Shown here piece after piece: positions 30,296-52,731 of a DNA stretch of 64,000 nt. Position 1 is the first letter of the stretch, and every line of letters begins with the position of its first letter. Position numbers and translations under genes: made by a program. The notes under the pieces were generated by a model, which was not told the DNA's origin, did not search any database, and was given only the letters and a program-made list of their open reading frames with translations. The stretch is from Patescibacteria group bacterium (GTDB lineage: Bacteria > Patescibacteriota > Patescibacteriia > Patescibacteriales > UBA12465): positions 454,945 through 518,944 of the forward strand of contig JBAZKQ010000001.1 of assembly GCA_041650715.1 (NCBI GenBank). The letters are read 5' to 3'.

Positions 30296-32977
30296 TTATT
30301 TTGAATAAATATCTATAAAAGACTGATAGTTATCAATCTCCTTATAATTAACCTTTATAACTTCAAAATGCTTTTTAGCGGATTCTATTTTCGCTTTTTC
30401 TGTTGGACGTAAATTATCAATGTCACCCTTAGTTTCAATCACAAAATACACCTTTTCACTTTCGTTTCCTCTTAGGTCACGCTTAGCTGTAACTATAGCC
30501 CAATCAGGATTATAACTTCCAACAGGAGTCTCAACCTTATACCAATTAGGCATCTTAATAAACAACTTAATTTGTTCATCATGTTCAAGGTCTAGGGCAA
30601 AATTCATTTCTACATCAGAATCATGAACAATGGCATCGTAAATAGACCTAGTAACTGGCAAGGTAGAATCCTTATAGCTTTCAAGCGTTTTAAATTCCTC
30701 TACTTTATAAGAATCAGAAATTACTTCATAGCTCACTTGCTCAACATAGGTCTTTACAAGTTCCTGTTTAATAATTTTACTTGCCTCAACAATGAAACGA
30801 TCAGGATTATTGAAGAAGGCCTCCCAATTATTTGCTTTAAGCACTATATCGGCAACAGTAGCCCGAGTAAGACGAGTTTGTGTCTTAATTTCGGAGATAC
30901 AGTCAATCGTTCTGCTTTGTGTGGCCACTATTTCGCCTGATTCGGACCCCAGAGCAAGAGATTTAACTCCTTCCACGGATATATTGATACCAGCACGCTC
31001 AACGCGAATGTGGGGCTTTTGTAGTCGAATCTCAGAAACAGCCTTTGCGGAATTAGTAATTAGTGATTCCGTGTTTACTTTTACTAAGTAACGAGTCTTT
31101 TTTGAAATACGGTCCCACAATTCCTTAAAGTTTTCATCTTTTTGAAAACCGGGCTTAAGTACGATCTTGCTGCGCTGTTTTGCATTGTAAGGCAACTGAG
31201 GTGTCTTATAAATACCATCTTCTTGGAATTCTGCCTGCAAACTTGCGACGTAGTCGGCATAACTTATATTGGCGATAACTGAAAGTAAGTTAATGTGCCT
31301 ATCAAAAATACGATCACCGTCTTGATTGACGCAAAGACGCATGCCGCGACCAATCTCTTGCCGCTTCTTCATGGTTGAAGTTGTTTCGTTTAAAGTACAG
31401 ATATTAAACACATTAGGATTATCCCAACCCTCTCGGAGTGCTGAATGGGAGAAAATAAACTCGACAGGCTCAGAAAAAGACAAAAGACGTTCCTTATCCT
31501 TCATGATAAGCTCATAGGCTTCATCATTTTTCTCAATAGCTGATTCTTGTTCAACAAAACTACCATCCTTCTTTTTCGCAAAATATCCGGTATGAAGTGA
31601 ATCAGTGGAATTCTGCCCTAGCGTAAACGTGTCTTTTACTTTTGATAATTCTTCTGTAAATATCTTACGAATTAATCCATCAGCGCCGGCATAGTTTGCA
31701 ACTTTATCAATAAAGAAAAGACTAAGCACTTTAATATCAGAGTCTTTATATTTTTGTTTTTTCTCAATGTGAAGTCGGATAGTCTCAGAAATTTGTCTTC
31801 GCCATATATCTTCCTTATTTTGATTAATTGCAGTCCCTCTAGAAAGAATAAACCCATTGGTAAAATGTACTTTACCCTCAGAGCCAAACTCAGGCGCATC
31901 AGCATCTATATTCGAAACCACATATCCGCTATAAGCCTTGTTATTAGTTATATTTACAAGATCATCTCCTTTTTTTAAATTAATCGCCTTAATTTTTCTA
32001 TTACCATCACCATCTGCAAATGCGAGTTCAGCTTTTGCTTTAATGCCACTGGCGGTTTTTGCTGGTTTCGCTTCAACAAAAACCATATGAGGAGTAGAGC
32101 TACCACTATCGTCATCCGTTACAGAGAAAACCTCTATTTTTTTAACAAGACCTAACTGGTAAGCGTCATATGGGGTAAGCTGATGAACAAGGTTATATAG
32201 ATTTTTATGAGTAGCAGAATAACGCAAACGGAATAATGCATTGAAATTTTCAAGAGCTTTCTTTGTTGCTTCACCCTCCATATTTTGAGGCTCATCAAGA
32301 ATAAGGATTGGATTAGTCTTTTTAATAAACTCGATTGGTTGTTCGCCTTGCATTTGGTCCCGGACACCATAAAGAACATTAGCATCTTTATTAAACGCTC
32401 CAACTGTCATGACCATGATATTAATCACACTGCTATCAGCAAAATGACGAACTTGAGATATATTCTTTGATTTGTATTCATAAAATCTAAAAGGGGTATT
32501 TGCATACAATTCTTTGAAGTGATCTTCGGTAATTTTGAGGGTTTTAATAACACCCTCGCGGATAGCAACGGAAGGTACTAAAATAATAAACTTCTTCCAG
32601 CCATACTTTTGATTAAGCTCAAAGATAGTTCGCAAATAAACATAAGTCTTACCCGTACCGGTTTCCATCTCAATTGAGATGTCTTTAACATTCGCTTCAA
32701 GACCGATAGGTGATCCTTCTTCAGTAAGTAAAGCAAAACCATCTTCGGTTAAAAGTTTATCCCCACCTGAGATTGCTAAATTTTGCGCTTTTTGACAATT
32801 CTGAATGTTTTTTAATATATCGTCATCTGATAAAGTCATTAGATTTGGATAAATACCAAATAAACCAGCTCCAGCTATAGTCTGTTCTGTAGTTTTTTCT
32901 TGCCCATCAAAACAATCAACTACTGAGTTGATGGCTTGTAATTGGAATTCTTGGTTTGGGTCAAACTTAAATTTCAT
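30296..32977 (-). CDS. res: Type III restriction enzyme Res subunit (SF2 helicase plus PD-(D/E)xK nuclease)
   Basis: METGTGKTYVY (Walker A), ILDEPQNM (motif II), SALREGWDNPNV (motif VI), C-terminal YNPDWAIV...YFVIETKG. Confidence 0.9.
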   Translation of the reverse strand: MKFKFDPNQEFQLQAINSVVDCFDGQEKTTEQTIAGAGLFGIYPNLMTLSDDDILKNIQNCQKAQNLAISGGDKLLTEDGFALLTEEGSPIGLEANVKDISIEMETGTGKTYVYLRTIFELNQKYGWKKFIILVPSVAIREGVIKTLKITEDHFKELYANTPFRFYEYKSKNISQVRHFADSSVINIMVMTVGAFNKDANVLYGVRDQMQGEQPIEFIKKTNPILILDEPQNMEGEATKKALENFNALFRLRYSATHKNLYNLVHQLTPYDAYQLGLVKKIEVFSVTDDDSGSSTPHMVFVEAKPAKTASGIKAKAELAFADGDGNRKIKAINLKKGDDLVNITNNKAYSGYVVSNIDADAPEFGSEGKVHFTNGFILSRGTAINQNKEDIWRRQISETIRLHIEKKQKYKDSDIKVLSLFFIDKVANYAGADGLIRKIFTEELSKVKDTFTLGQNSTDSLHTGYFAKKKDGSFVEQESAIEKNDEAYELIMKDKERLLSFSEPVEFIFSHSALREGWDNPNVFNICTLNETTSTMKKRQEIGRGMRLCVNQDGDRIFDRHINLLSVIANISYADYVASLQAEFQEDGIYKTPQLPYNAKQRSKIVLKPGFQKDENFKELWDRISKKTRYLVKVNTESLITNSAKAVSEIRLQKPHIRVERAGINISVEGVKSLALGSESGEIVATQSRTIDCISEIKTQTRLTRATVADIVLKANNWEAFFNNPDRFIVEASKIIKQELVKTYVEQVSYEVISDSYKVEEFKTLESYKDSTLPVTRSIYDAIVHDSDVEMNFALDLEHDEQIKLFIKMPNWYKVETPVGSYNPDWAIVTAKRDLRGNESEKVYFVIETKGDIDNLRPTEKAKIESAKKHFEVIKVNYKEIDNYQSFIDIYSK

Positions 32978-32982
32978 AATTA

Positions 32983-34800
32983 TTAAATGGTTTTCAGATC
33001 AAGGTTAAGCGCTAAATTAGCAGCCATCGTGTCGTCCAAAGCGCCCTCAAGACAGATAAATAATTTATCTTTATACAATTTATCAGTAAGCGCTTTTACG
33101 GTTTCTGGGGTAAGTTTTCTTTCAAGACAAACAAAAAAATGCTGTTCACCATCGGTAATTTGATAAACATTATTCTTACCAAGTAAAATTTTATCAACCT
33201 TACTATTCAGCGACAAACCCTCTTTTACGATATTCTCATAGATGATACTAATATCATTTTCCTTATCAAACAATTGGCTTTGTTTTGCTTTATCCAAATA
33301 GGTAATAAATGCTTGTTGATTCTCTTCGGATGACTTTTGAGGATTAAAAACAAAAGTATTTTCAGGGTAGTTTGATTCGGAAAGTATAAAAAACTTAAAA
33401 CCTGAATTAATAGGTTTTGGATTTTTACCATAGCCATTAATAACATTTTTAATTCTAGTTTTAGTGATATCTAGAATTGTTTTAAAACCATACTTATAGC
33501 CTAGAGTATCTGTGTCTATTTTTTCGGGCAACTGCACAGTAATAAACTTACGATTGCCACCATCCAGTTCGTTCTGTGCTAAAACAGCATGAGCGGTCGT
33601 ACCTGATCCAGCAAAAAAATCAAGAATAATATCATTTTGGTTATTTTTTGTAGTATGAAAAATAAGTTTTTGTATCAAAGCTACAGGCTTTACGGTCTCA
33701 AATTCATGAACATCCGTGCCTAAAACTTCTGTCAATTCTGATTTACCCGTTTCAGCAGTCCCATAAGTATCTTTATCAAAAAAATGGGACCAAAAAGGAC
33801 TAAACCTTTCAAGGTTTTCATCATCAGGTCTTATTCTGAAGTATGCCTTGCCGTCAATCACTTCTACATCTCCTCGTTCTTGAAAGAATTGCACAGTATC
33901 AACTCCAACTTTCCACTGAAAACCATCTCTAGGAGAAACTCCAAGAATTGGATAAATCATTGACTGTCTTCCTCTCATGCCTATGGCAGACATTTCTTCG
34001 ACAACTTTTAATCGATACCACCCCTTGTCATCGTTTTTATCATAAACCTTCTGACCGGTTATCTCGAGATTAAACCTCATCTTTTCATTCAGTTTTTTGT
34101 AACTCAAAACATACTCTGTTTTTGATTGAAATTGTTCTCGTGCCGTCTCGGTGTTTTGTGCCTTAGTCCTTTTTTCCCAAGTAATTGTTCCTATAAAATT
34201 TTCTTCCCCAAAAATCTCATCCATTAACATTCTTAAATGATGAACTTCATTATCATCAATTGATACAAAAATAACGCCATCCTCGCGCAAAAGGTTCCAA
34301 GCTAATTTTAGACGAGGATACATCATGGAGAGCCAGTCGCTGTGATAGCGTCCGTTAGTTTCTTTGTTAGTTGTTGTGCTCTCTCCAGATTCGGTCTTTT
34401 GACCTGTTTGTTTAAGATAATTATCAAGCGGTGAACTAAAATCATCATTGTATACAAAATCGTGACCGGTATTGTAGGGCGGATCAATATAAATCATTTT
34501 TACCTTTTCAAAATATGCTTTCTGCAAAAGTTTTAAAACCTCGAGATTATCTCCTTCAATAAAAAGGTTCTCAGACTCATCCCATTTAATACTTTCTTCC
34601 GGCTTAGGATTAAGAGTTAACCTGCTAGGAATTAAAACGCTTTTAATAGCATTGCTTTTGCCGGCCCAGGTGAAAGAAAACTTATCGGACAAATTAATTG
34701 ACTGTGAACTTAGCTCCTCAATATATTTTTGTAAATTCAAAGACTTCTCAAAAAGTAAGTCGTCAGAGGTTAAATTAATTTTTGTGGGTTTTTTATTCAT
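32983..34800 (-). CDS. mod: Type III restriction-modification Mod subunit (beta-class N6-adenine/N4-cytosine DNA methyltransferase)
   Basis: IYIDPPYNTGHDF (DPPY) lies before ILDFFAGSGTTAHAV (FxGxG). It is directly upstream of res. Confidence 0.9.
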   Translation of the reverse strand: MNKKPTKINLTSDDLLFEKSLNLQKYIEELSSQSINLSDKFSFTWAGKSNAIKSVLIPSRLTLNPKPEESIKWDESENLFIEGDNLEVLKLLQKAYFEKVKMIYIDPPYNTGHDFVYNDDFSSPLDNYLKQTGQKTESGESTTTNKETNGRYHSDWLSMMYPRLKLAWNLLREDGVIFVSIDDNEVHHLRMLMDEIFGEENFIGTITWEKRTKAQNTETAREQFQSKTEYVLSYKKLNEKMRFNLEITGQKVYDKNDDKGWYRLKVVEEMSAIGMRGRQSMIYPILGVSPRDGFQWKVGVDTVQFFQERGDVEVIDGKAYFRIRPDDENLERFSPFWSHFFDKDTYGTAETGKSELTEVLGTDVHEFETVKPVALIQKLIFHTTKNNQNDIILDFFAGSGTTAHAVLAQNELDGGNRKFITVQLPEKIDTDTLGYKYGFKTILDITKTRIKNVINGYGKNPKPINSGFKFFILSESNYPENTFVFNPQKSSEENQQAFITYLDKAKQSQLFDKENDISIIYENIVKEGLSLNSKVDKILLGKNNVYQITDGEQHFFVCLERKLTPETVKALTDKLYKDKLFICLEGALDDTMAANLALNLDLKTI

Positions 34801-34839
34801 ATTATTTCTATTTTTTGAAAATTTAATACTATAAAAACC

Positions 34840-36567
34840 CTAAGACTTTAGATATATGTCTACCAAGGTTTGAATAATTTTATTTATCTTAAATTTCTTC
34901 AATTCATCCTTATCGGTTAAATAATCATGATTGTTATGCACTGAAGAATTCACGGCCTTACGAAATATAGAAACATCTGTATTAAACGTTTCTATTTTAT
35001 CCTTCACGCCAGGTGAAGTAAAATTAGTACGGTTATCATACAAATTTGCTATCAAATGAGAGAAATTCAACGTCCTGCCTTGACCTGTATTAAACCATAA
35101 ATCTGGCTGTTTTGGATATTTTTTCTCCAAGATATGAGTAACTAAGTTTTCTATTATCTTTCTGCACATCCAAAAAGATGCATTAGGGTAGTTCTTTTCA
35201 TGACACTCATTTGCTTCGTAAACAATTTGGTTATAATGAGTACTAGGGAATCCAGTTTTTACATCAATAAGTTGCGTTGATTTATCAGGACGATTACTTG
35301 TAGTAACTTTTGATTTCTGAACTTTTATTGTTTTAATTTTGCTCTTCCTAGCATGACCTTTAACTCGCCCTTTTTCTTGAGCATTTCGTAACACAACAAA
35401 TTCTCTGATGGCAGTTGTAACAAAATCAATCAAATCATAATACTCTGAATTATTTATGACGCCCTCTCTGGTAGTAGTATCTTCAATTTGAGGATTGTTA
35501 GCTTTGTTTATTGATACAGTGCTAAAAATTTGAGTATTTCCAGGTATATCGGAAGCATTTCTAGACCATTGATCTAGCCCTATCCAATCTGCCTCTTTAT
35601 CTCCGTATGGCTTAACTCTAAAATGGTCACGATATAATTTTATTCCACCATATTCATTTAACACTGAGCGAATATATTCTAAATCCTTGCTAACAATCTC
35701 CGCGCCAGTATTTCTTTTCCAGCTATCTGGTGTTTTATAATAAAAATATAATTCAAATTTAGCATCACCACACGACAGCCCCTTACTTAATTCCTTTTTT
35801 TCTTTCTTAATTAATTTACCGAGTTTAAAAAACTCGAAGCTAAAAATTTTTTTCTTTGTTAGGCTTACTTTAAATGAATAAGCCGATTTATCAAAAAAAT
35901 CCTTCTTAATTTTTGGTAAATCAACACTTTTATCGCCTATATTCTCTTTTATTTTAAACTTTTTAGGAGGATCAATCGGGGAAATTAACAAATTTAAATC
36001 TCGTAACAATGACTTTATTTTATCTTTATCGTTCCAACTGCCTTTTAATTCTTTTATCTCTAAAGACGTACCGTGAGGCACTTTGTTTTTCGCCATTTTC
36101 CATGTCTCAATATCAATATCAGTTGCCTTACTGCTATCAGAAAATTTACTCCAATCGAATTCTAGCTCATACCCATTTTTTTCCAGTTTCGATTTTGTAG
36201 ACAAAATCATTTTATGTCCCAGGCTATGAGAAGCAAATCTGCCTATACCCTTCGCGCCTACTGGGACCCTGTGATAAATATCTGTTTTTGTAATCGTCTT
36301 TTTATGTGGCGATCCTATATCCATGAATCGATCTTTAATATCAGATAATCCCATCCCAATACCGTCATCGCTTATTTTAATAGATGCGTTATGTTTTTCT
36401 TTGTCTAAAAAATCAACGCCCACAGTAGTACTATCAGCGTCATAGGCGTTTTTTATTAATTCTGCTACGGCGACATTAGGATTTGATATTGATTCCTCGC
36501 CTAGCTCAGTAATTATATTACCATTAAATGTAAATCGAAAATTGCTAATTTTTTCTCTGTCCGGCAT
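34840..36567 (-). CDS. GHKL (HATPase_c_3 / MORC-like) ATPase with a C-terminal helical domain
   Basis: ELIKNAYDAD (N box), ISDDGIGMG (G1), GAKGIGRFA (G2), transducer-like GIKLYRDHFRVKPYGDKEADWIGLD. The C-terminal ~130 aa resemble DUF4145-type helical domains. Its start lies 1 nt after the dcm stop. Confidence 0.75.
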   Translation of the reverse strand: MPDREKISNFRFTFNGNIITELGEESISNPNVAVAELIKNAYDADSTTVGVDFLDKEKHNASIKISDDGIGMGLSDIKDRFMDIGSPHKKTITKTDIYHRVPVGAKGIGRFASHSLGHKMILSTKSKLEKNGYELEFDWSKFSDSSKATDIDIETWKMAKNKVPHGTSLEIKELKGSWNDKDKIKSLLRDLNLLISPIDPPKKFKIKENIGDKSVDLPKIKKDFFDKSAYSFKVSLTKKKIFSFEFFKLGKLIKKEKKELSKGLSCGDAKFELYFYYKTPDSWKRNTGAEIVSKDLEYIRSVLNEYGGIKLYRDHFRVKPYGDKEADWIGLDQWSRNASDIPGNTQIFSTVSINKANNPQIEDTTTREGVINNSEYYDLIDFVTTAIREFVVLRNAQEKGRVKGHARKSKIKTIKVQKSKVTTSNRPDKSTQLIDVKTGFPSTHYNQIVYEANECHEKNYPNASFWMCRKIIENLVTHILEKKYPKQPDLWFNTGQGRTLNFSHLIANLYDNRTNFTSPGVKDKIETFNTDVSIFRKAVNSSVHNNHDYLTDKDELKKFKINKIIQTLVDIYLKS

Positions 36568-36568
36568 A

Positions 36569-37819
36569 TTAAAAAAATTTAATTAATTTATTAGCAATCA
36601 ACGACGATAGCATAGGCGGTACCGCATTTCCAATTTGTTTGTATTGAGCAGATCTACTTCCTTCAAATATAAAATCATCAGGAAATGTCTGAAGACGAGC
36701 CGCCTCTCTAACTGTTAGCGATCTATTCTGCTCAGCATCTGGATGTATATAATAATGTCCATCTTTTGATATGTGCGCTATAACAGTATGACTGCTGGCC
36801 GCAGCACCATCAACAACTTTAAACCTATCTAAAAATCCCGTCTGGTTCTTGTGAGTCTTTAATTTATTTGGCAGTTCATTATATTTTATATTATGACCAT
36901 TATTCTTCTCCTTAACCGCCATCTTGTAGATAGTCAGGTCTTGTTTGTTATTTGGTCGCGCAGCATGACCCAGCAAAACTCCGAAATTATTTGTAATACC
37001 CAACTTATCTAATATCTTAGATTTACTTTTAAACTTAGTCGCGACAGAACCTTCTCCGGACTTTAATTTTGGTAGATCTAATAAAAAATCACTAACTTTA
37101 TAGTTTCTGTCTACTTTGTCAAAAACTGGATATGATTTTAAATTAGCCTTGGAATTCCAACCTATAAGAATAACCCTTCTTCGTTCCTGAGGAACGCCAT
37201 ATTCAGCGGCATTCAATATGCTAAATTCGGTGTTGTAACCGGCAGCTTTCATCGCTAGACGCATACTATTCAAATACATTCCCTTACCAGAACTTAATAG
37301 ACCGGGAACATTTTCGAAAATAAAAACCTTCGGTTTAAGAGCCTTTAAAAATTCCACATAATACTGATATAGAAATTTTCTAGGATCGCGTTTCATGTGT
37401 TTCCTGTCCGACCCTCTCCCAATATGTGAATACGCCTGACAAGGCGGCCCACCAATAATAATATCTAAATCGGCACCGTTAAGTCTTTCTTTTACTTCAC
37501 CAATTAACTGAGCATAATTGTCACGACTTATTTTTTCCTGAATAACAGAATCTATCTCTTTATTTAATTTATATTTGCTAACTATTTCTTCCCTAGTTTT
37601 TTCTCCTAACAGATATTTTTTATACTCCTCTAGTTTTCCTTTCTTTCTTAAAGCATGATAAACCATTCTCGTTCGAATCGTCTCGCAAGCCTCTTTATCC
37701 ATTTCAATATGCGCCACAATATCACATCCGGATAAAATAAAACCTTCAGAAAAACCTCCGACTCCGGCAAAAAGGTCTAACACCATTGGCTTTTTAGTTT
37801 GCGATTTTTTTTTCTTCAT
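36569..37819 (-). CDS. dcm: DNA (cytosine-5) methyltransferase
   Basis: LDLFAGVGGFSEGF (I), GGPPCQAYS (IV), FIFENVPGL (VI), QERRRVILIG (VIII), TVREAARLQTFPDDF (IX), GNAVPP (X). Confidence 0.95.
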   Translation of the reverse strand: MKKKKSQTKKPMVLDLFAGVGGFSEGFILSGCDIVAHIEMDKEACETIRTRMVYHALRKKGKLEEYKKYLLGEKTREEIVSKYKLNKEIDSVIQEKISRDNYAQLIGEVKERLNGADLDIIIGGPPCQAYSHIGRGSDRKHMKRDPRKFLYQYYVEFLKALKPKVFIFENVPGLLSSGKGMYLNSMRLAMKAAGYNTEFSILNAAEYGVPQERRRVILIGWNSKANLKSYPVFDKVDRNYKVSDFLLDLPKLKSGEGSVATKFKSKSKILDKLGITNNFGVLLGHAARPNNKQDLTIYKMAVKEKNNGHNIKYNELPNKLKTHKNQTGFLDRFKVVDGAAASSHTVIAHISKDGHYYIHPDAEQNRSLTVREAARLQTFPDDFIFEGSRSAQYKQIGNAVPPMLSSLIANKLIKFF

Positions 37820-37923: not shown

Positions 37924-37954
37924 AAAAAAATAAGCTAACATTAGCTTATTTTTT
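37924..37954. terminator. Bidirectional hairpin terminator after the tRNA
   Basis: A7-TAAGCTAA-ca-TTAGCTTA-T6. Confidence 0.65.
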
Positions 37955-37959
37955 GCTTG

Positions 37960-38270
37960 CTCCCAGGGTCGGATTCGAACCGACGACCAATTGGTTACAC
38001 TTATCCACTAATTTCTTAATGGGGTGGACTATATCATCATCCTTAAATTAAGGATGCGAGGCGCTTCGGGCCATCTTGCGATGGACCTACTCCCTTTCAG
38101 GATAGTCTCTGAACCTTCCATGACCTCCATGGCTTGGCTGCTGATTACCATATCCATATGGATTTAGGCTTCCAGACAATTCACCTCGTTTTCGGTGCTG
38201 ATTACTCAGCAGAGCTGCGTTTAGAACTACGTGTTCACAGCCAACTGCGCTACCGCTGCGCTACCTGGGA
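37960..38270 (-). tRNA. tRNA-Asn(GUU) interrupted by a group I intron (exons 38270-38237 and 37997-37960; CCA not encoded)
   Basis: 5' exon: TCCCAGG-TA-GCGC-AGCGGTA-GCGC-A-GTTGG-CTGT. 3' exon: TAA-CCAAT-TGGTC-GTCGG-TTCGAAT-CCGAC-CCTGGGA-G. Together they form a 72-nt cloverleaf with anticodon loop CUGUUAA and G73. Confidence 0.8.
37998..38236 (-). ncRNA. Group I self-splicing intron (239 nt, no ORF)
   Basis: P1 GGCUGU/GCAGCU has a U-G wobble at the 5' splice site, and the terminal nucleotide is G. GNRA hairpins are GCUGA-GUAA-UCAGC, CCAUC-GCAA-GAUGG and CCAUUAA-GAAA-UUAGUGG. Core strings AUGGUAAUCAGCAGCCAAGCC, UUCAGAGACUAUCC and GAUAUAGUCC resemble those of the Tetrahymena, Azoarcus and Anabaena introns. 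Confidence 0.8.
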
Positions 38271-38280
38271 ATATAACGTT

Positions 38281-38308
38281 ATTTTAGCAAATATGAGGAT
38301 TATGTCAA
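38281..38308 (-). promoter_or_regulatory. Sigma-70 promoter of the tRNA gene
   Basis: Minus strand reads TTGACA-16-TAAAAT, ending 10 nt before tRNA position 1. Confidence 0.55.
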
Positions 38309-38395
38309 ACTCTCCTTATTTTCTTTATATTCCGTCCATTTTCTGTTATAATAGGCTGGTATTGACCCATATTCGGGGTCCTAAAATATAATAAT

Positions 38396-40744
38396 ATGCC
38401 TAAAAAAAGACTCTTTTCCCTTTATGCCCTCATTATTATTGTCGTCGCGGCCGGCCTATTCTTAATATTACGGCCTCATAAATACACGCCGACGCCGATC
38501 GAATCTAATCAATCAAGCCAAGGCGCTACCTCAACCACAGAAGCGCTAAATGAGCCCAATATCGGCTTTACTCCGACTTATCAGGAAAACGCCACGCCTC
38601 TCGCTCAGGTGCCTAATTATGAGGCAATTAAAGCTAAATATGGCCTCACTCTTTCCCCGGCTCAAGAAAAATACCTGGATAAAAACCGCTTTCTCCTCAT
38701 AAACTATGACTCCGTACCCTTCTTTAAGTCCGGCCTGAACTTTGACCAATGGCTTGTCGACTCTGATCGGATGGGCGGCGGCTCTATTTATAATCGTAAG
38801 CCGGAAGACAGCGTACTCGTAACGCCCGATACGGTTCTTCATGCTTACCATAAATATTTTGAATTAACCTTAGAAGAATTGGAGCAGCATGAACTAAGCC
38901 AAGCCTTGGGTGATTTCCTAACCGGTCTTCACGCTAATCTCGCCACGGCCGTTAAAGATAGCCAAGGCGAAATTAAAACCCGCTATCAAAATCTTGAGGC
39001 CCAAATCGTTTTGGCCCAAGTATTGTTTGAAAATAAAAACGCGGCCAAGCCAAGCTATTTTAATAGTCCGGACGAAGAAGTGAAATATAGCGAAGCGGAC
39101 AAAACGATTGACTCGCTCGCTAATGCTAATCTCCTTTTAACTAAATATTCCAGCGACCTAACGCCGGAACTAATTAACGCGATTAAATCTGATCTCACTG
39201 AAATCTATGCCGCCAAAAATATCGGCGCTTCCCCGCTCTTTAAGCAATACGACGAACAAATCAAAACTGACTACACGCAATTTACGCCCCGCAGCCACTA
39301 CGCGAAGAATTCGACTTTACGCGCCTACTTCCGCACGATGATGTATCTGGGCCGGAGTAGTTATTTACTCCATAGCGATTTGGCCATCGCCGATACTAAT
39401 TTACTCGTGAAACAAATGGCGCTGAAAAATGGCGCGGCCGCGCCGCTCGACTCCTGGCAGAAAATTACCACTATTACCGATTTCTATGCCGGCCAAAGCG
39501 ACGACCTGACTTATCCGGAGTGGCAGGCTTATGAAGCGAGCCAACTCGGTGCGAATACTAATTCTGACGCCGCCCTGACTTCAGCCGACAATATTGCGAA
39601 ATTAAAGGCCAATCTTGATAAGCTCCGAAAACCAAAAATATTATCCGATGTTATAATCGACGAAAATATCGCAGCGCGCGATAAAGCGAGTCTACTTAAT
39701 CAGTCCCTATCTTTCCGCGTCTTCGGCCAGAAATTTTCTTTCGACGCTTCTATTTTAAACGATCTCACCGCCGGACAAGAAAAAACTGAAGTTAAATTGC
39801 CTTCAATGCCTTCGGCTCTATTTGTCCCCGCCGTTCTCGGCGATTTACGCGCGGAAACTTATGTCGCTAAATTCCTGGAAACGATTGGCTTTAACGCCGC
39901 TGAAGTAGCCGGGTTCACGACAAAACTTGAGCTGAAAAAAACTGCCCTCAAAACAGTCCCTGAATCAGACTGGTATCAATCTTTAGGCAGCTCCTGGCTT
40001 TATGTGCTCGGCGCGCTCACCCATAATTACGGCGTGAATTATCCGCTTTATATGCAGTCCCGCTCATTTCTCGATAAGCAGATTCAAACTTTCCTCGGCT
40101 CATACGCCGAACTCAAGCACGATACCCTGCTCTACGCGAAACAAAGTTATGCGGAACTCGGTGCCGGTGGCGAAGATCAACCGCTCCCGCCTATTGTTAA
40201 GGGATTCGTGGAACCGAATCTCGAGTTCTTGAATAGATTCAATAAATTAATTGAGCGCACCGAAACGCTCTATACCGCCAATAATCTATTTACTAATCAA
40301 AGCGCAATGGAACGTTTAGGACAATTCAAAAAAATCTCCGCCTTATATACAAAGATTGCCGAGGCTGAGTTGCGCGGCCAAGCGATTAGCGACGACGACT
40401 ATGAAACTTTGCGCACGACTAAATTAGCTTTTATGGCCCAGCCTTTTGAAGCGGTCGACCCGACAGAAACTTCCGGCCAAACCGCATTAATTGCCGATAT
40501 CCATACCGATATGGTCAGCGGACAAATTCTTTACGAAGCAACTGCCAAGCCCTATTTAATGCTCGCGATTGTCGGTAACGAAAATGCCCCGCGCGTCGTC
40601 GCCGGTTTAGTTTATAATCATTACGAACTGACGGATCCAATTGGCACGCGCTTAACGGATGAAAATTGGCGCAATCGCGTTTATAAGGATAATAGTCTTT
40701 TACCAGCCAAGAATTTTTGGTACGACTCTATTCTCGTTAAATAG
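38396..40744 (+). CDS. Large membrane-anchored/secreted protein, DUF3160-like
   Basis: N-terminal TM segment LFSLYALIIIVVAAGLFLIL. The FTPRSHYAKNSTLRAYFRTMMYLGRS block resembles, from memory, the DUF3160 signature. 782 aa. Confidence 0.55.
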   Translation: MPKKRLFSLYALIIIVVAAGLFLILRPHKYTPTPIESNQSSQGATSTTEALNEPNIGFTPTYQENATPLAQVPNYEAIKAKYGLTLSPAQEKYLDKNRFLLINYDSVPFFKSGLNFDQWLVDSDRMGGGSIYNRKPEDSVLVTPDTVLHAYHKYFELTLEELEQHELSQALGDFLTGLHANLATAVKDSQGEIKTRYQNLEAQIVLAQVLFENKNAAKPSYFNSPDEEVKYSEADKTIDSLANANLLLTKYSSDLTPELINAIKSDLTEIYAAKNIGASPLFKQYDEQIKTDYTQFTPRSHYAKNSTLRAYFRTMMYLGRSSYLLHSDLAIADTNLLVKQMALKNGAAAPLDSWQKITTITDFYAGQSDDLTYPEWQAYEASQLGANTNSDAALTSADNIAKLKANLDKLRKPKILSDVIIDENIAARDKASLLNQSLSFRVFGQKFSFDASILNDLTAGQEKTEVKLPSMPSALFVPAVLGDLRAETYVAKFLETIGFNAAEVAGFTTKLELKKTALKTVPESDWYQSLGSSWLYVLGALTHNYGVNYPLYMQSRSFLDKQIQTFLGSYAELKHDTLLYAKQSYAELGAGGEDQPLPPIVKGFVEPNLEFLNRFNKLIERTETLYTANNLFTNQSAMERLGQFKKISALYTKIAEAELRGQAISDDDYETLRTTKLAFMAQPFEAVDPTETSGQTALIADIHTDMVSGQILYEATAKPYLMLAIVGNENAPRVVAGLVYNHYELTDPIGTRLTDENWRNRVYKDNSLLPAKNFWYDSILVK

Positions 40745-40771
40745 AACTCTCTTTCAATTAAATCTTGCAAC

Positions 40772-42598
40772 ATGAAAATAAGAAAAGTCTTTTTCATTAT
40801 CGTGGCATTTTTTGCCCTGACGACAATCTTAACTGCTCTTTTATTAATTAAGGAAAGGCCAGATTTTCGTGTTGCCTCAGATTTATCAGATTCAAAAGAG
40901 CCGATTAGCGCGCAATATACCGAGTCCTCTTTTTTCCTGTCCGCTATTAAACAAAATAAAACTGCACCGTCTTTAGATACGGTCAGCGGTCTCATCGTGC
41001 CTCATCATTTGCTCGCTAAAGACATGATTGCTTCTGCCTATGCTTATGCTTCATCCGGAAAACATTCAACTATCGTTCTCCTTAGCCCGGATCATTTTTC
41101 GGCCGGAAAATCAGAAGTTTCCGTCAGCGAACGTGATTTCGCGACTGTATTTGGCATAGTCGCGAGTGATAAAAAAATTGCCGGTGAATTAAAGAAACTG
41201 CCCTTTGTCGGCGAGGGTGATTTTTTCTATCGCGAACATGGCCTGCAGGCCGAGCTCCCTTTTATTAAATATTATTTCCCGAACGCCAAAATTATCGCCC
41301 TCACTTTTAAGCCGACAACTTCTCAAGATAAACTTGATCAAATAATTAGCGTCTTGGAAAAAAATTTGCCGGACGATTCTTTAATAATTCAAAGCACTGA
41401 TTTTTCGCATTATTTGAGTCCGGCACAAGCCGCGCGCGAAGATACGGAATCAATCGCGATGATTATGAGCGGAGATGCGCCCCAGTCTTTAGATCTCGGC
41501 CAACCAGCCAATCTTGATTCGAGTGCCGCTCTATATATTCAAACCCGTTTGCAAACCGAATTTTTTAAGACTGAACCGAATATCTTAGAACATAAAAATT
41601 CTCAGGACTATACGACCGAACCAGTCGACTCTTCAACCAGCTATCTAACGGTCGCTTATAAAGCGGAAACACAAATGACTGGTGCTGCAATGACTGGTGC
41701 TGCAACAACGACGGATGAAAACTTAAGCCCGGACAAAAAATATGGCAATGCCGAATTTATTTTTGTCGGTGATATTATGCTCTCGCGTTATATCGGCGAA
41801 CTCATGGCTAAGCGCCAAGATTTTAATTTTCCTTATGAAAAAATAAAAACTGATTTAGCCGGCGCCGATTTATTATTCGGAAATTTAGAAGCACCGGTTT
41901 CAACTCGGGGTGAATCAGCCGGTGCCCCTTACCCTTTCCGCGCCGACCCGCTTGTCCTGTCGGGATTAAAGGATTCCGGCTTTAGCGTTCTCTCCGTTGC
42001 GAATAACCATGCCTTTGATTATAAGTTAGCCGCGTTTAGCGATACCCTAAATAATTTAAAAAACGCCGACCTCGATTATACGGGCGGCGGGTTTAACTTT
42101 AGCGAAGCACGCGCGGGCGCACTTATGGAAATAAACGGTATTAAAACGACGCTTCTCGCCTATACCGACTTAGTGCCTAAAAGCCAAGCGGCGACGGATA
42201 ATCGGGCTGGTCTCAGCTATCTTGACGAGGCGCAAATGGTAAAAGATATTAAGGCGGCAAAAGCTAAATCAGATTTAGTTATCGTTTCTTTCCATTGGGG
42301 CCAAGAATATCAAACTCATTCTAATCAGCATCAACAGAAAATTGCGGCTGAAGCCGTTGCGGCCGGGGCAGATTTAATCGTCGGCCATCACCCGCATGTC
42401 CCTCAAGAAATTAGTGAAATTAATGGCGTTACTGTCGCTTATAGTTTAGGTAATTTTGTCTTCGACCAGAACTTTTCGCCTGAAACGAGGAGCGGCTTAA
42501 TTCTTTATGTAAAAATTGAAAATAAAAAAATCATCTCCGTCGAACCGGAGACGATAAAATTCACAAATAATTATCAGCCCTATATAACCCAAAAGTAA
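40772..42598 (+). CDS. Fusion of a Memo/AmmeMemoRadiSam-B-like domain and a CapA-family metallophosphatase domain
   Basis: N-terminal half: GLIVPHHLLAKDMIASAY...IVLLSPDHF...QSTDFSHY. C-terminal half: FVGDIMLSR...NLEAPVS...SVANNHAFDY...SFHWGQEY...GHHPH. A TM anchor sits at the N-terminus. Confidence 0.7.
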   Translation: MKIRKVFFIIVAFFALTTILTALLLIKERPDFRVASDLSDSKEPISAQYTESSFFLSAIKQNKTAPSLDTVSGLIVPHHLLAKDMIASAYAYASSGKHSTIVLLSPDHFSAGKSEVSVSERDFATVFGIVASDKKIAGELKKLPFVGEGDFFYREHGLQAELPFIKYYFPNAKIIALTFKPTTSQDKLDQIISVLEKNLPDDSLIIQSTDFSHYLSPAQAAREDTESIAMIMSGDAPQSLDLGQPANLDSSAALYIQTRLQTEFFKTEPNILEHKNSQDYTTEPVDSSTSYLTVAYKAETQMTGAAMTGAATTTDENLSPDKKYGNAEFIFVGDIMLSRYIGELMAKRQDFNFPYEKIKTDLAGADLLFGNLEAPVSTRGESAGAPYPFRADPLVLSGLKDSGFSVLSVANNHAFDYKLAAFSDTLNNLKNADLDYTGGGFNFSEARAGALMEINGIKTTLLAYTDLVPKSQAATDNRAGLSYLDEAQMVKDIKAAKAKSDLVIVSFHWGQEYQTHSNQHQQKIAAEAVAAGADLIVGHHPHVPQEISEINGVTVAYSLGNFVFDQNFSPETRSGLILYVKIENKKIISVEPETIKFTNNYQPYITQK

Positions 42599-42611
42599 AA
42601 TCATCATTCCG

Positions 42612-42650
42612 CAAAAATAAAACCGCCTCTTCTGGCGGTCTTATTTTATA
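42612..42650. terminator. Bidirectional terminator between convergent genes
   Basis: ACCGCC-tcttct-GGCGGT flanked by A-rich and T-rich runs. Confidence 0.6.
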
Positions 42651-42692
42651 TTTTTTATTTTGGCTCCTGATGATTTTAAATTCTTCAATTTT

Positions 42693-44009
42693 TTAATAAT
42701 CTCTCAATTTCTCGAGTCCCTTAAACTTCCGAATCTTCTCGAGGGCTTTGGATTCGATCTGGCGGATACGTTCGCGGGTAACTTCAAATTCCTGACCAAC
42801 CTCTTCTAAGGTATGAGCGACGCCATCAACGAGTCCAAAACGCATTTCTAATATTTTTTGTTCGCGCGGTGAAAGCTGCGCCACAATATTTTTTACATAG
42901 TCCCTCAAAAGCTGTAAAGCGGCTGCCCTGTCCGGCGTTACGTTTTTTACGTCTTCGATAAAATCTTCAAGAGTCGAATCTTCTTCGTCGTCGCCGATAG
43001 TTGTTTCGAGCGAGATGGTATCCTGAGAAATTTTCATAATATAACGGACCTTCTCAATTTCTTCGCCCATCTCCGCTGCAATTTCATCGGCCAAAGGTTC
43101 CCGTCCTAATTCCTGAATTAAGTTTCTCTGCACCTGTTGGAATTTATTGATTGTTTCGACCATATGGACCGGAATACGAATGGTGCGCGACTGATCGGCT
43201 AAAGCGCGCGTAATCGCTTGGCGAATCCACCAAGTCGCATAAGTTGAAAATTTATAGCCCTTGCGATATTCAAATTTTTCGACAGCGCGGAATAAACCGA
43301 TATTGCCTTCCTGAATTAAATCCAAAAGACTCATGCCTTTCGCGCCGGCAAATTTCTTCGCAATCGAAACAACCAAACGTAAATTCGCTTCAATAATTCT
43401 CTTCTCCGCTTCTTTATCACCCTTCTCTTTTCGTTTCGCGAGTTCAACTTCCTCGTCGCCGGTCAGTAAGGCGACTTTCCCGATCTCCTTCAAATACATC
43501 TGAATCGAGTCAGCACTTAATTTTGATAAATCAATATTCATCGCGTTCTGATGCGCGAGGGCTCGCCCGGTTAAAGCCGGTTCATTCGCTTTCTTTTCCG
43601 CCATATCTAAAATTCGGCCGGAATCTTCCGCAATCCGAATCCCGTTCTTCTGCAAATCACCCAAAAAGACGTCATAGTCATAGACGTATTCTTCCACTTC
43701 CGGAAATAAATATAAAAGCTCAGTTTCGGTAATGAAACCGCGCAGACGTCCCTTATCGATTAAGCGCTGCATCGCGGCGTCGGAAGGTTTCGCGACCACG
43801 CGCGCTTCTTCTTTGACGTGTTTTACAACCTTAAGCAATTTCAACTTGGTCTTCGGTGCTTTCTTCTCCGTCTTTTTCGGCGCACTCTTACGCAAAACAA
43901 CCGCTTTTTTCAACGGTTTAGAGACCTTCGCTTTCGGCTTAGTTTTCAGGGTCGTCATTTTTGTTTTCTTTGTAGATTTTTTAATTTTTTTTGGCGCTGG
44001 CTTAGCCAT
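42693..44009 (-). CDS. rpoD: Primary RNA polymerase sigma factor (sigma-70) with a Lys-rich N-terminal extension
   Basis: [43 protein letters not shown], and the region 4 sequence [23 protein letters not shown]. Confidence 0.95.
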
Positions 44010-44017
44010 ATAAATTT

Positions 44018-45844
44018 TTAACCTAAATTAATTTTTTTAATCTCGTCGGTCAAATTCATGAGTTCTGCCATTAGTATTTCCAAATCCGCCTGGCGTTCTT
44101 CTTTTTCCGCCGCGGCGATTAATTTTTCGAGTTTTTTAATTTTCTTCTGGCAACCGTACTTTTTCAAATCAACCATGATCTTAATGATTTCCGCTTTCGC
44201 GCTGACGGCATCAAAGCTATAAAAATCCTTCTCCCCCAGAAGGATTAATTTATCGAGTAATTTTTCTGCGCTTTCACCCTGTTCCTCTAAATAATTCCGG
44301 AAGGAAACATATTCTAAAGAAGCAGTCTTATTATAATAGATTATCAGGTTCTTGTAAAACCCGGCGGCACCATTTCCACTTAAATTTTCCGGCTCCAGAT
44401 TACTCGCACAGTAGCCGATATGGTCGCTGAACTTAACGAGGAGCGCCAGCAATAATTCGCTGAGCCGATCTTCGCGGGAATGATATTCGCTTTTAGCTTC
44501 TTCTTTTCGGCTCGCTGCGGCCGGCGTTCTTTTCAGTTTTTTTTGCCAGGCGAGAAATTCCTCGCGGCTGTCGCCTTCAGAAAATCCGAGTTCCTCACTG
44601 ATTTTTTTTAACCAATAACCCTGCTCGGTTTGGTTATGGACCAAATCAATCATGATAAACATGCTATCGCGCACCTTTGTTTTATTATCCAGTATTTCCA
44701 AATCTAAATCGGCGCTTACTTTTTGAAAATAATATTCAAGCATCGGTTGGGCACTTTCGACTGCCAGTTTAAAATCATCGGGGTTATTGCGCAGACATTC
44801 ATCCGGATCCTTGCCGTTAGGCAAAGTGATAATTTTTAAATTTAACTCTTGCGCGAGCACTTCGCGGATTCCTCGGTCAGCCGCCATCTGTCCCGCTTTA
44901 TCCATATCAAAGGCCAAAGCGACATTATTCGTAAATCTTTTAATAAGGGCAACTTGCTCGGTCGTTAGCGCTGTTCCCGAAGAGGCAACCACGTTATTAA
45001 AGCCGTGCTGATGGCAAGAAATGGCGTCCATTTGGCCTTCAACCACGATTGCCAGGTCTTCTTGCCTAATCGCGGTTTTCGCCTTATTTAAGGCAAATAG
45101 GACCCGGCTTTTATCATAAACCGCAGTCTGGGGACTATTAATATATTTGCCCATTTTTTCGGTCTTTTCCTTCGCCGGATTAATACGCGCGGTAAAAGCA
45201 ATTAAGTTATTATTGACGTCCCAAATCGGGAACATAATGCGATCCCGGAAACGGTCATAATAGCCGCTCCCCCGCGTACCCGTACCTTCTTTCTTAATAC
45301 TGAGGCCAGCCGCACTAATTTCTTCGTCCGTATATTTTTTGCCGACCAGGGGTCGGGCTTTTAAAAAATCATATAAATTACTCCAGGCGTCGGCACTATA
45401 ACCGAGCTGCCACTCGCGCAAAGTTTCTTCTTTCAGGTCACGGCCAACTAAATAAGCGCGCGCGGCTTCCCCACTCTTCGTCCCGAGTAAATGCGCATAA
45501 TACTTTCCGGCGAGCTCAAGCACATCAAGCAGACGATTCCGTTGCGAATAAGTTTCCGCATTTTCATATTTCAAAACCACGCCCGCTTTCGGCGCCAAGA
45601 GACGCAATGTTTCCATAAAACCCAAGCCTTCTTTTTCCATTACAAAAGCAAAAACATCGCCGCCCCGGCCACAGCCAAAGCAATGCCAAATCTGCTTATC
45701 CGGCGAAATCACAAAAGACGGCGTCTTCTCGTTATGAAAAGGGCAAAGCGCCTGAAAGTTCGCACCGACGGCTTTCACCGGCGTGTATTCGCGAATCACT
45801 TCGACGATATCCAATTTAGATTTTATTTCTTCGGACTGTCCCAT
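44018..45844 (-). CDS. dnaG: DNA primase
   Basis: Zn finger [26 protein letters not shown] and TOPRIM VVEGQMD...DMDKAG. It lies directly upstream of rpoD. Confidence 0.95.
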
Positions 45845-49966: not shown

Positions 49967-51358
49967 TTAGAATTCCGCATTCTTCGGTGTACGTGGGAAA
50001 GGAATGACGTCGCGAATATTGGCCATGCCGGATAAATACATGATTAAGCGCTCAAATCCCAAGCCATATCCCGCGTGTTTTACCGAACCGTATTTACGTA
50101 AATCAAGATACCAAGCATAGTCTTCTTTTTTGAGGCCCATCTCATCCATTCTTTTCTCAAGCATATCAAGCCGTTCTTCGCGCTGCGAGCCACCGATAAT
50201 TTCACCGATACCGGGAACGAGCAAGTCAACCGCGGCGACGGTTTTTCCGTCATCGTTCATGCGCATATAAAAAGCTTTGATGTCTTTCGGATAATCGGTT
50301 AAGAATACCGGACCGCCGACTACCTCTTCGCAGAGATAACGCTCGTGTTCAGTTTGTAAATCAATTCCCCATTTTACCGGATACTCAAATTTCTTGCCGG
50401 ACTTTTCTAAAATCTCAATGCCTTCCGTATAAGTCATGCGGCGGAACTCGGAATTAATTAATTTAGTTAAACGCTCAAGCAAAGTCGGATCAATAAATTT
50501 ATTGAAAAATTCCATTTCTTCCGGCAGTTCTTTGAGGACATAGGAAATTAAATATTTAATCATTTTCTCTTCCATGTCCATATCATCATTCAAATCGGCG
50601 AAAGCCATTTCCGGTTCCATCATCCAAAACTCGGAAGCGTGCCGGGTCGTATAGGAATTTTCCGCACGAAAAGCCGGCCCGAAAGTATAAACCTTATCAA
50701 GCCCCATCACGAGCGCCTCGGCATTAAGCTGACCACTCACAGTCAGCCCCGTTTTCTTACCAAAGAAATCTTCTTTATAATTTATTTCTCCTTTATCATC
50801 TTTTGGTACATTTTTTAAATCCAGGGTTGTTACCTGAAACATTTCACCGGCGCCTTCAGCATCGCTTGTCGAGATAACTGGAGTTTGAATATAAGTAAAA
50901 CCTTGTTCTTGAAAAAATTTGTGAATGGCGAAACTTAAAGTTGAGCGTAAACGAAAGACAGCCGAAAAAGTATTGCTACGTCCGCGCAAATGCGCAATCG
51001 TGCGCAGAAATTCAAAACTATGTTTTTTCTTCTGAAGAGGATAATCTTCGGCGGCGCGTTGAATAATATTTATGGTTGTCGCTTTTAATTCAAAAGCTTG
51101 CCCGGCCGCGGGAGACTCAACGAGTTCGCCTTCAATTTCGAGTGATGAACCAATCGTAATTTTTTCTACTTCGGAAAAATTACTTAAATCAGATGCAAAA
51201 ACAATTTGTAAACCCTTAAAGAATGATCCATCGTTTAATTCAATAAAACCGAAATCTTTAGAGCTCCGTGAAGTCCGCACCCAACCGGAAACGAGAATAT
51301 TTTTACCTAAATATTCTTTCGTATCGCGATATAATGATTTGATAATTATTTTAGACAT
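49967..51358 (-). CDS. asnS: Asparagine--tRNA ligase
   Basis: Class IIb: [37 protein letters not shown]. 463 aa. Confidence 0.9.
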
Positions 51359-51414
51359 ATAAATTTAATTAATTTTTCCCCGAAGTTAATTGCGCTTTCT
51401 CATTATGGTTTAAC

Positions 51415-52731
51415 TTATGGATTCAAGCGCTTAACGTCGCGCGGTAAGAAGCAAGCTTCCTTAATACTACCGAGTCCCATGAGCTTCATCACGATTCGGC
51501 CCGGGCCCATACCGATACCGCCGTGATTTGGGCAGCCATAGCGGAAGAAATTAATATAATCTTTTAATTCTTCTAAATTCATGCCTTTTTCAATCGCCTG
51601 TTTTTCGAGGACTTCAACGCGGTGTTCGCGCTGTGAGCCCGTCGTAATTTCGAGGCCGCGATAAAGCAGATCGAAACTCTTCGTCAGATTATTATTATCC
51701 TCATGGCGCATATGATAAAAAGGGCGCGCGGCAATCGGATAATCGGTGACGAAAACAAAGTCATGATTCATTTCCTCTTTGATAATTAGGCCTAATTCTT
51801 TTTCTTCTTCGGTTGAGAAATCCCAATCCTTTTCGCTCTTAATTCCCTTCGCCGCTAATTTCTGTTTCGCTTCCGCGAGAGTAATGCGCGGGAAAGGCTG
51901 TGCCGGCACTTCAATATCAAGCCCTAAATCTGTTTTAACTTTTTGAAAACCGGAGACAAGCAAGCCCTCTTCTGTATCCATTAAATCGGCATGTGATTTA
52001 ATATAAGCCATTTCAAAATCCCAACCCGTGAATTCAGTGACATGGCGCGTGGTAAAAGATAATTCCGCGCGGAAAACCGGACCGCAGCAAAATACTTTTT
52101 CAAAGCCCGATGCAATCGCCATCTGCTTGTAAAACTGAGGAGACTGAGAAAGATAGGCTTTACGATCAAAATATTTAACTTCAAAAACTTCCGAACCGGT
52201 TTCAGATGAGGTGCTCATGAGGCAGGGGGTATTAATTTGGAGAAAATCATTTTTGGAAAAATATTCGCGGAAACCTTCTTCGAGCTTAGACCAGACTTTA
52301 AAAATCATTTGATTCTCTTCACGGCGTAAATCAAGCCAGCGCCAATCAAGACGATTATCTAAATTCGCTTCATTATCCGCTTTAGCTAAAACCGGGATCG
52401 GTAATTCCTCTTCAGCAAGTGAAATTAGAGTGACGCCCGTTGCCGCTAATTCAAAATCTTGAACCGGGTTCGGATCGTTTTTTTTCATCGGTTTCGCCTG
52501 TAGAGTTCCAGTTACTTCAATCACGCTCTCCAGATTCAATTTTTCCGCTAAATTAAAATTATCGTTATTGCCGTCACTATTCGACACAAAAACAACTTGG
52601 ATTAAACCGCTGATATCGACGAGATCGATAAACACCAGGCCCTTATGCAGGCGTAAATTCCGCACCCAACCGGTAACGGTCACTTCGCCCTGGCCTTGTT
52701 TTTTGGCTTCGGTAATTTTAATTCTTGGCAT
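51415..52731 (-). CDS. aspS: Aspartate--tRNA ligase, archaeal/eukaryal-type (438 aa)
   Basis: FRAELSFTTRHVTEFTGWDFEM, TGSQREH, GGIGMGPGRIVM. Confidence 0.9.
   Translation of the reverse strand: MPRIKITEAKKQGQGEVTVTGWVRNLRLHKGLVFIDLVDISGLIQVVFVSNSDGNNDNFNLAEKLNLESVIEVTGTLQAKPMKKNDPNPVQDFELAATGVTLISLAEEELPIPVLAKADNEANLDNRLDWRWLDLRREENQMIFKVWSKLEEGFREYFSKNDFLQINTPCLMSTSSETGSEVFEVKYFDRKAYLSQSPQFYKQMAIASGFEKVFCCGPVFRAELSFTTRHVTEFTGWDFEMAYIKSHADLMDTEEGLLVSGFQKVKTDLGLDIEVPAQPFPRITLAEAKQKLAAKGIKSEKDWDFSTEEEKELGLIIKEEMNHDFVFVTDYPIAARPFYHMRHEDNNNLTKSFDLLYRGLEITTGSQREHRVEVLEKQAIEKGMNLEELKDYINFFRYGCPNHGGIGMGPGRIVMKLMGLGSIKEACFLPRDVKRLNP

Follow-up and report, generated by a model that had tools for sequence, protein, structure and literature searches.

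A tRNA-Asn(GUU) gene split between anticodon positions 35 and 36 by an IA-type group I intron on a contig assigned to Patescibacteria

The stretch of DNA analyzed here (the window) covers 64 kb of a 758-kb host contig with a GC content of 39.9%. On its minus strand lies a pre-tRNA gene (38270..37960) composed of two tRNA halves that are separated by a 239-nt insert. The 5' exon (38237..38270, minus strand, 34 nt) supplies the 5' strand of the acceptor stem, the D arm, the 5' strand of the anticodon stem and residues C32, U33, G34 and U35. The insert occupies 37998..38236 (minus strand) and is followed by the 3' exon (37960..37997, minus strand, 38 nt), which supplies U36, A37 and A38, the 3' strand of the anticodon stem, the variable loop, the T arm, the 3' strand of the acceptor stem and the discriminator G73. 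This division into a 34-nt half, 239 nt and a 38-nt half agrees with an earlier sequence-only reading of the window. The terminal CCA is not encoded in the gene. A putative sigma-70-type promoter (38281..38308, minus strand), consisting of TTGACA, a 16-nt spacer and TAAAAT with a TG before the -10 box, matches the consensus at 11 of 12 positions and ends 10 nt upstream of tRNA position 1. On the other side of the gene, an AT-rich 9-bp hairpin (AAUAAGCUA / UAGCUUAUU) followed by a U-tract (37924..37950, minus strand) can be read directly from the sequence and is a likely intrinsic terminator. A terminator scan of the locus called no GC-rich terminator, and it missed this hairpin because the stem contains only two G-C pairs. 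If both elements are used as predicted, the tRNA would form a single-gene transcription unit.

In its default mode ARAGORN found no tRNA at all in the unspliced 64-kb window. When the 239 nt from 38236 to 37998 were removed, the same program reported a perfect 73-nt cloverleaf, consistent with the claim of the sequence-only reading that the tRNA is complete only without the insert. That the insert is a group I intron, as had been suggested, is supported by the Rfam model Intron_gpI (RF00028), which matched 38234..38005 (minus strand) at 88.6 bits against a gathering score of 50 (E = 2.8e-21). The match spans model positions 1-253 of 253, and RF00028 was the only Rfam family above threshold in the 64-kb window. 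A Pfam search of the ORFs within the intron and of the overlapping plus-strand ORF returned no family match, in keeping with the earlier statement that the intron carries no homing-endonuclease ORF.

To place the intron in a comparative setting, species-representative genomes were scanned for the P7' core followed by a gap and a tRNA 3' half starting with TAA, which gave at least 120 loci. The 5' halves were rebuilt for each locus from acceptor-stem and anticodon-stem complementarity alone. Among the matches listed, the 5' half ends in CTGT in 92 sequences including the window (at least 91 besides it), and it is these that we refer to as the family. Their introns, among the same matches, fall into two length groups of 197-352 nt and 437-723 nt, and at least 60 species-level genomes hold the intron without a homing endonuclease. 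The scan also recovered split tRNAs of other kinds. If the 5' exon is taken to end in U and the intron in G, six actinobacterial loci (L002, L008, L026, L045, L066 and L115; Microbacterium, Agromyces) would be tRNA-Lys(UUU) genes interrupted at 34/35, and three others (L029, L065 and L105) would be tRNA-Arg(UCU) genes interrupted at the same position.

A secondary structure was drawn up manually, using the window sequence together with the Rfam alignment, and was mapped onto a MAFFT alignment of 36 ORF-less relatives. The fold comprises P1, P2, P3, P4, P5, P6/P6a, the P7 pseudoknot, P7.1, P7.2, P8, P9.0 and P9, and every pair in it is a standard pair in the window sequence (all elements on the minus strand). 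The internal guide sequence GCAGCU (38213..38218, intron nt 19-24) forms P1 with exon residues G30-U35 and is followed by P2 (38196..38211, intron nt 26-41), a 6-bp hairpin with a GUAA tetraloop in which 6/6 pairs have changed on both sides. The P3 5' strand (38188..38182) opens the region at 38113..38188 (intron nt 49-124) that holds the P4-P5-P6/P6a domain with its conserved GGUAAUCAGCAGCCAAG core; the helices here, placed with the Rfam alignment, are 75-100% paired, most of them with compensatory changes. The P7 5' strand, GAGACUA (38103..38109, intron nt 128-134), pairs with 38031..38026 to give the pseudoknot helix that is the seat of the guanosine-binding site. Between P7 and the P3' strand lies a covarying 35-nt insert (38068..38102) that forms P7.1 (38102..38091, GAAA loop; 97.7% paired) and P7.2 (38087..38068, GCAA loop; 87.8% paired, with 7/7 pairs changed on both sides). 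The segment at 38026..38063, supported by the Rfam alignment and by covariation, then contains the P3 3' strand (38063..38057), the P8 hairpin (38055..38039), J8/7 (38038..38032) and the P7 3' strand UAGUCC (38031..38026). The intron closes at 37998..38025 with P9.0 (A38025-U37999 and C38024-G38000) around P9 (38022..38005, GAAA loop) and the terminal G37998. The three GNRA-capped hairpins recognized earlier are thus P2, P7.2 and P9, and the GAAA loop on P7.1 adds a fourth.

Across the 36 relatives the intron fold is 88.1% paired, as compared with 33-43% when the partners are slid by one to three columns. Both sides have changed in 51 of the 72 intron pairs, and 0/500 shuffles reached the observed values. 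Taking the structure from one member of the alignment favours the fold somewhat, but the margin is large, and the fold is far beyond chance. P3, P4, P6 and P8 covary; P7 is 100% paired across its six pairs but invariant, which leaves it beyond the reach of a covariation test. For the tRNA cloverleaf formed across the intron, pairing reaches 99.5%, and 13 of its 21 pairs show compensatory changes; its acceptor and anticodon stems, each made of strands from both exons, are formed in 36/36 relatives, again with compensatory changes, indicating that the two halves evolve as one tRNA.

An arrangement with P7.1 and P7.2 between P7 and the P3' strand defines the IA subgroup. The tRNA introns of Azoarcus and Anabaena belong to IC3, which has a compact core without these hairpins. 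The window intron has both hairpins and is of IA type by this architecture. The likeness to the Tetrahymena, Azoarcus and Anabaena cores, all IC, that the sequence-only reading invoked was therefore misplaced. An IA assignment is in line with the work of Nakagawa et al. (mSystems 2026, PMC13011429; preprint July 2025, 10.1101/2025.07.03.662931), in which 25 of 28 introns at position 35/36 were classed as IA and no Patescibacteria tRNA intron was assigned to IC.

The identity of the tRNA depends on the exact splice sites because excising the 239 nt in a shifted frame leaves an equally perfect cloverleaf. In two frames the 5' exon ends in U and the intron in G. The first, CUGU/...GUG/UAA, gives the anticodon GUU (Asn) with the intron at 35/36, and the second, CU/GU...AAG/UGUAA, is shifted by 2 nt and gives UGU (Thr) with the intron at 33/34. 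The intron mode of ARAGORN (-i) chose the second, calling tRNA-Thr(tgt) i(33,239) on the unspliced locus. The earlier assignment to Asn(GUU) at 35/36 proved correct, although it is less self-evident than was implied given this call; it is backed by evidence at both splice sites, in the exons and in uninterrupted homologues.

The 5' splice site is marked by the guide GCAGCU (38218..38213), whose pairing with GGCUGU includes a U·G wobble, as had been proposed. Across the family, the introns carry a conserved GCAGC(U/C) motif close to their start. The first four bases of this motif pair with C32-U35, including the U35·G wobble, and these inner pairs (U·G, G-C, U-A and C-G) are invariant in 36/36 aligned relatives. 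In the window P1 is 6 bp long. Pairs 5 and 6 are kept inconsistently in the family, with pair 5 unpaired in 16/36 relatives, and P1 is only 4 bp in many of them. In the Asn frame a P1 of at least 4 bp is found in 95% of the ORF-less introns compared to 57% of shuffles, while the corresponding values in the Thr frame are 42% and 37%. The Thr frame has no fitting guide: its best P1 in the window is 3 bp, and the family mean is 3.7 as against 3.3 in shuffles. No convincing P10 helix could be defined; at best it would have 3 bp (GUU/AAC), in competition with the P1-loop hairpin.

Two other candidate guides were considered and set aside. An unrestricted search of the first 100 nt of the intron returned GCAGCCAA (intron nt 96-103), which is complementary to the anticodon arm at 8/8 positions; it was rejected because it is part of P4'/P6, and the search was repeated within the first 60 nt. 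The first 6-bp match there was GUAGUU (intron nt 7-12), which would form three wobble pairs and was passed over in favour of the family-conserved GCAGCU. The complementarity between the core string GCAGCCAA (38134-38141, minus strand) and the anticodon-arm sequence UUGGCUGU (38237-38244, minus strand) nevertheless exceeds the real P1 in length and might favour misfolding in competition with it. Relatives show this complementarity only if GTTGG is the sequence of their anticodon stem.

At the 3' splice site the decisive element is P9.0, the helix that docks the terminal G. Its strands are the dinucleotide that follows the P7' strand (GAUAUAGUCC) and the dinucleotide immediately upstream of the terminal G, which pair in 92/92 family members among the matches listed and do so in at least nine combinations (AC/GU, AU/AU, AA/UU, GC/GC, GG/CU, GU/AC, AG/CU, GA/UC and UC/GA). 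In the window P9.0 consists of A38025-U37999 and C38024-G38000, which places the terminal G at 37998 and not at 38000; in the Thr frame P9.0 would be out of register. That the last intron base is a G, as the sequence-only reading had it, holds for G37998 and for 92/92 family members among the matches listed. The introns of 29 of these 92 end in ATG, TTG, CTG, GCG, ACG, TCG or GAG and not in GTG, and there the Thr frame loses its terminal G or yields another anticodon. Among the 92 sequences listed, the frame that fits the whole family is 35/36 only. The exons agree: position 1-72 is U-A in 92/92 (the window and the family members among the matches listed) and the discriminator is G73 in 92/92 among those matches, as in the intron-less Asn genes described below. 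The U1-A72 pair, G73 and the terminal intron G were not imposed by the search pattern.

Uninterrupted relatives provide a separate line of evidence on exon identity. We scanned metagenomes for uninterrupted genes with the exact anticodon arm of the window, leaving the three anticodon bases free. The 135 intron-less matches (120 contigs) carried TTT in 106 cases, GTT in 26, CTT in two, CAT in one and TGT in none. The joined exons of the window are identical at 71/72 positions to one of the intron-less GTT genes (L191) and at 70/72 to four others (L196, L179, L159 and L137), and at no more than 59/72 to the Lys genes. An identity of 70-71/72 to the GTT genes indicates that the exons are those of a tRNA-Asn, and that the predicted ligation product is what the uninterrupted relatives encode.

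An asnS gene (49967..51358, minus strand; 681 bits against a cutoff of 414) lies approximately 11.7 kb from the tRNA, matching the distance of about 12 kb noted earlier. It is adjoined by a gene for an archaeal-type non-discriminating AspRS (aspartate--tRNA(Asn) ligase; 466 bits against a cutoff of 353), the pair occupying 49967-52731 (minus strand). With both genes present, the genome may possess the direct as well as the indirect route to Asn-tRNA-Asn. Directly 3' of the tRNA are two restriction-modification gene pairs (30296-37819, minus strand), one encoding a type III endonuclease and an N6/N4 methylase and the other a BbrUII/HgiDII-like enzyme and a C5 methylase. No repeat of the tRNA 3' end, which might mark an integration site for these genes, was found within the 64-kb window. 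On the other side (37960-45844), the closest relatives among the matches listed have dnaG, rpoD and tRNA-Asn in the same order as the window, with 0.5 to 4.4 kb of variable DNA between rpoD and the tRNA; the genes in this segment of the window are a DUF3160 gene and one for a Memo/PGA_cap fusion. Neither the restriction-modification genes nor the DUF3160 gene occurs next to the tRNA-Asn of these relatives.

The dnaG-rpoD-tRNA-Asn arrangement is common to the nearest intron relatives among those matches (L062, L068 and L058), with RpoD approximately 90% identical. The window RpoD and DnaG are 91.6% and 68.6% identical, respectively, to those of L062, which is labelled Patescibacteria. Two close relatives, L058 and L109, are labelled Gammaproteobacteria, and their RpoD is 82-90% identical to that of the window. 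Contigs named 'uncultured Gammaproteobacteria bacterium' (L058, L109, L009, L073, L079 and others) carry the intron as well, so that the labels conflict. Shared gene order and RpoD identity favour a possible Patescibacteria origin for the window, against which stand the labels of some close relatives.

We conclude with high confidence that the locus is a tRNA-Asn(GUU) gene split at 35/36 by a 239-nt IA-type group I ribozyme without a homing-endonuclease gene, in a predicted transcription unit of its own. What the analysis itself shows is the match to the group I model, the covariation behind the fold, the junction, exons of Asn identity and homology to a published intron. The window intron is probably active as a catalyst, by analogy with a homologue of 74.7% identity for which self-splicing at 35/36 has been demonstrated in vitro. 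A course for the reaction can be proposed. The precursor would be transcribed from the TTGACA/TAAAAT promoter and the intron would fold into P1-P9, with the guide GCAGCU pairing to exon G30-U35 and temporarily displacing the upper anticodon stem. A free guanosine occupying the P7 site would attack after U35, at the U·G wobble. P9.0 would then set the terminal G (37998) in the same guanosine site, and the 5' exon would attack after G37998. The joined product would have the anticodon loop CU-GUU-AA; trimming by RNase P and addition of CCA would complete the tRNA, which the AsnRS encoded 11.7 kb away could charge. On this proposal Asn decoding would depend on splicing.

Splicing might be more than a constitutive step. 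One reading, which would add to the main explanation, makes the intron a regulatory gate, responsive for instance to GTP or Mg2+ or reliant on a cofactor, on the supply of tRNA-Asn in a reduced genome. Such a gate is raised as a possibility by the authors of PMC13011429, and the persistence of the intron without a homing endonuclease in the species-level genomes counted above, together with the conserved dnaG-rpoD-tRNA-Asn order, could be taken in its favour. Both of these features fit vertical retention, and persistence could also come about because an intron is hard to lose precisely from an essential gene present as a sole copy. The sequence does not call for gating, and homologues self-splice in vitro without protein (PMC13011429). 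We consider a gate unlikely. An extended version holds that the ORF-less intron is kept as a guanosine-nucleotide/Mg2+-responsive RNA checkpoint on Asn decoding, in what is possibly the only tRNA-Asn gene, and that the family may reach well beyond Patescibacteria, as suggested by hits labelled Omnitrophota, Planctomycetales and Oligoflexia. Its two parts draw on conservation and on database labels, and the combination strikes us as quite improbable.

The intron could conversely be a decayed, non-splicing relic and the gene a pseudogene, with Asn decoded by an uninterrupted tRNA-Asn elsewhere. The window is 64 kb of a 758-kb contig, which leaves room for a second copy, and the flanks are variable and hold restriction-modification genes. 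Against decay, the window sequence retains every core helix and each core position that is invariant in the family, the 88.6-bit model match is full-length, the promoter match is near consensus and both exons form an unblemished cloverleaf. The interrupted genes are, in addition, the sole tRNA-Asn copy in the published complete genomes (PMC13011429). Taken together this makes a relic very unlikely. Scarcely credible, finally, is a tRNA-Thr(UGU) made by excising 239 nt two bases further 5', after U33 (38239) and after G38000, since this frame has no counterpart in the 29 of 92 listed homologues whose introns do not end in GTG, and the same miscall, made for such genes by ARAGORN and tFind, was disproved by sequencing of the spliced product (PMC13011429).

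The preferred reading, a tRNA-Asn(GUU) gene with a group I intron at 35/36, has consequences for annotation. Standard tRNA finders miss the gene or call it tRNA-Thr(UGU), and the genome would then seem to be without a tRNA-Asn, which affects both completeness estimates and genetic-code inference. The P9.0 covariation, found in 92/92 sequences among the matches listed, offers a simple sequence-only rule for placing the 3' splice site and complements the published approach of BLAST against intron-less homologues (PMC13011429).

The sequence-only reading regarded an Asn host as unusual. This does not hold, as the class has already been published and, in the survey of PMC13011429, is the commonest tRNA intron of Patescibacteria. 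It was first listed by Williams in 2020 (10.1101/2020.01.27.920355) as Asn.4Ug, as cited in PMC13011429. In the survey of 95 complete Patescibacteria genomes by Nakagawa et al., 15 of the 22 intron-containing tRNA genes are tRNA-Asn(GUU) with the intron at 35/36. For the tRNA-Asn intron of GCA_016700035.1 these authors demonstrated self-splicing in vitro at 35/36 and sequenced the product, with a mutant of the terminal G serving as control. Since the family is both published and experimentally validated, the claim of novelty is not borne out; the locus is one more member of this evidently abundant family and holds no new biology.

The published Asn introns share the host tRNA and the insertion site with the window, as well as the exon context GGCTGT/...GTG/TAACCAATTGG. 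They are of the IA class, with which the P7.1/P7.2 of the window intron match. Their length is similar (ORF-less forms are 197-352 nt among the matches listed and the window intron is 239 nt), and they draw the same Thr(UGU) call from ARAGORN. The window pre-tRNA is 61-75% identical to the five pre-tRNAs of Table S3 (PMC13011429) that were compared, including 74.7% identity to the experimentally spliced pre-tRNA of GCA_016700035.1 and 73.9% to that of GCA_016699245.1, which has the same P7.1/P7.2. The window genome differs from the source genomes of the Table S3 sequences compared, and in the validated Saccharimonadia intron the region between P7 and P3' is built differently from that of the window. 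The nearest species-representative genome among the matches listed, L062, reaches only 86% identity over the pre-tRNA. L106 shares the 3' exon of the window without a difference, but its match extends over only 161 nt, at 91% identity.

HNH endonucleases (PF01844) have been reported in four tRNA-Asn introns (PMC13011429). Among the matches listed, about a third of the family introns (32/92) belong to the long group of 437-723 nt, and 28 of these 32 (L079, L010, L035, L046 and 24 others) carry a sense ORF of approximately 100-110 aa in the P1 loop with the pattern CxxC...HH...CxNCH; one such ORF matched Pfam HNH at 18.1 bits, below the threshold of 21.4. Variants of this kind (e.g. L079 and L010) have a P1 loop that accommodates an ORF of about 102 aa, whereas that of the window intron is 18 nt long and has none. 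L079 is 81.6% identical to the window over 272 nt of intron and 3' exon and 97% identical over the first 38 nt at the 5' exon. The window intron is the endonuclease-free form of the family.

More distant parallels exist in two well-known groups. The classical, self-splicing IC3 bacterial tRNA introns, found in cyanobacterial and plastid tRNA-Leu(UAA) at 34/35, in Azoarcus tRNA-Ile(CAU) and in Agrobacterium tRNA-Arg(CCU) at 36/37, resemble the window intron in being ORF-less group I introns of the anticodon loop, with a P1 formed from the anticodon stem-loop, a U·G wobble and a terminal G. They differ from it in subgroup architecture, host tRNA and insertion position. The phage IA2 introns (T4 td and Twort orf142-I2) have an IA-type core with extra helices between P7 and P3', as in the window, a likeness of subgroup architecture; unlike the window intron, they reside in phage protein-coding genes and often carry endonuclease ORFs.
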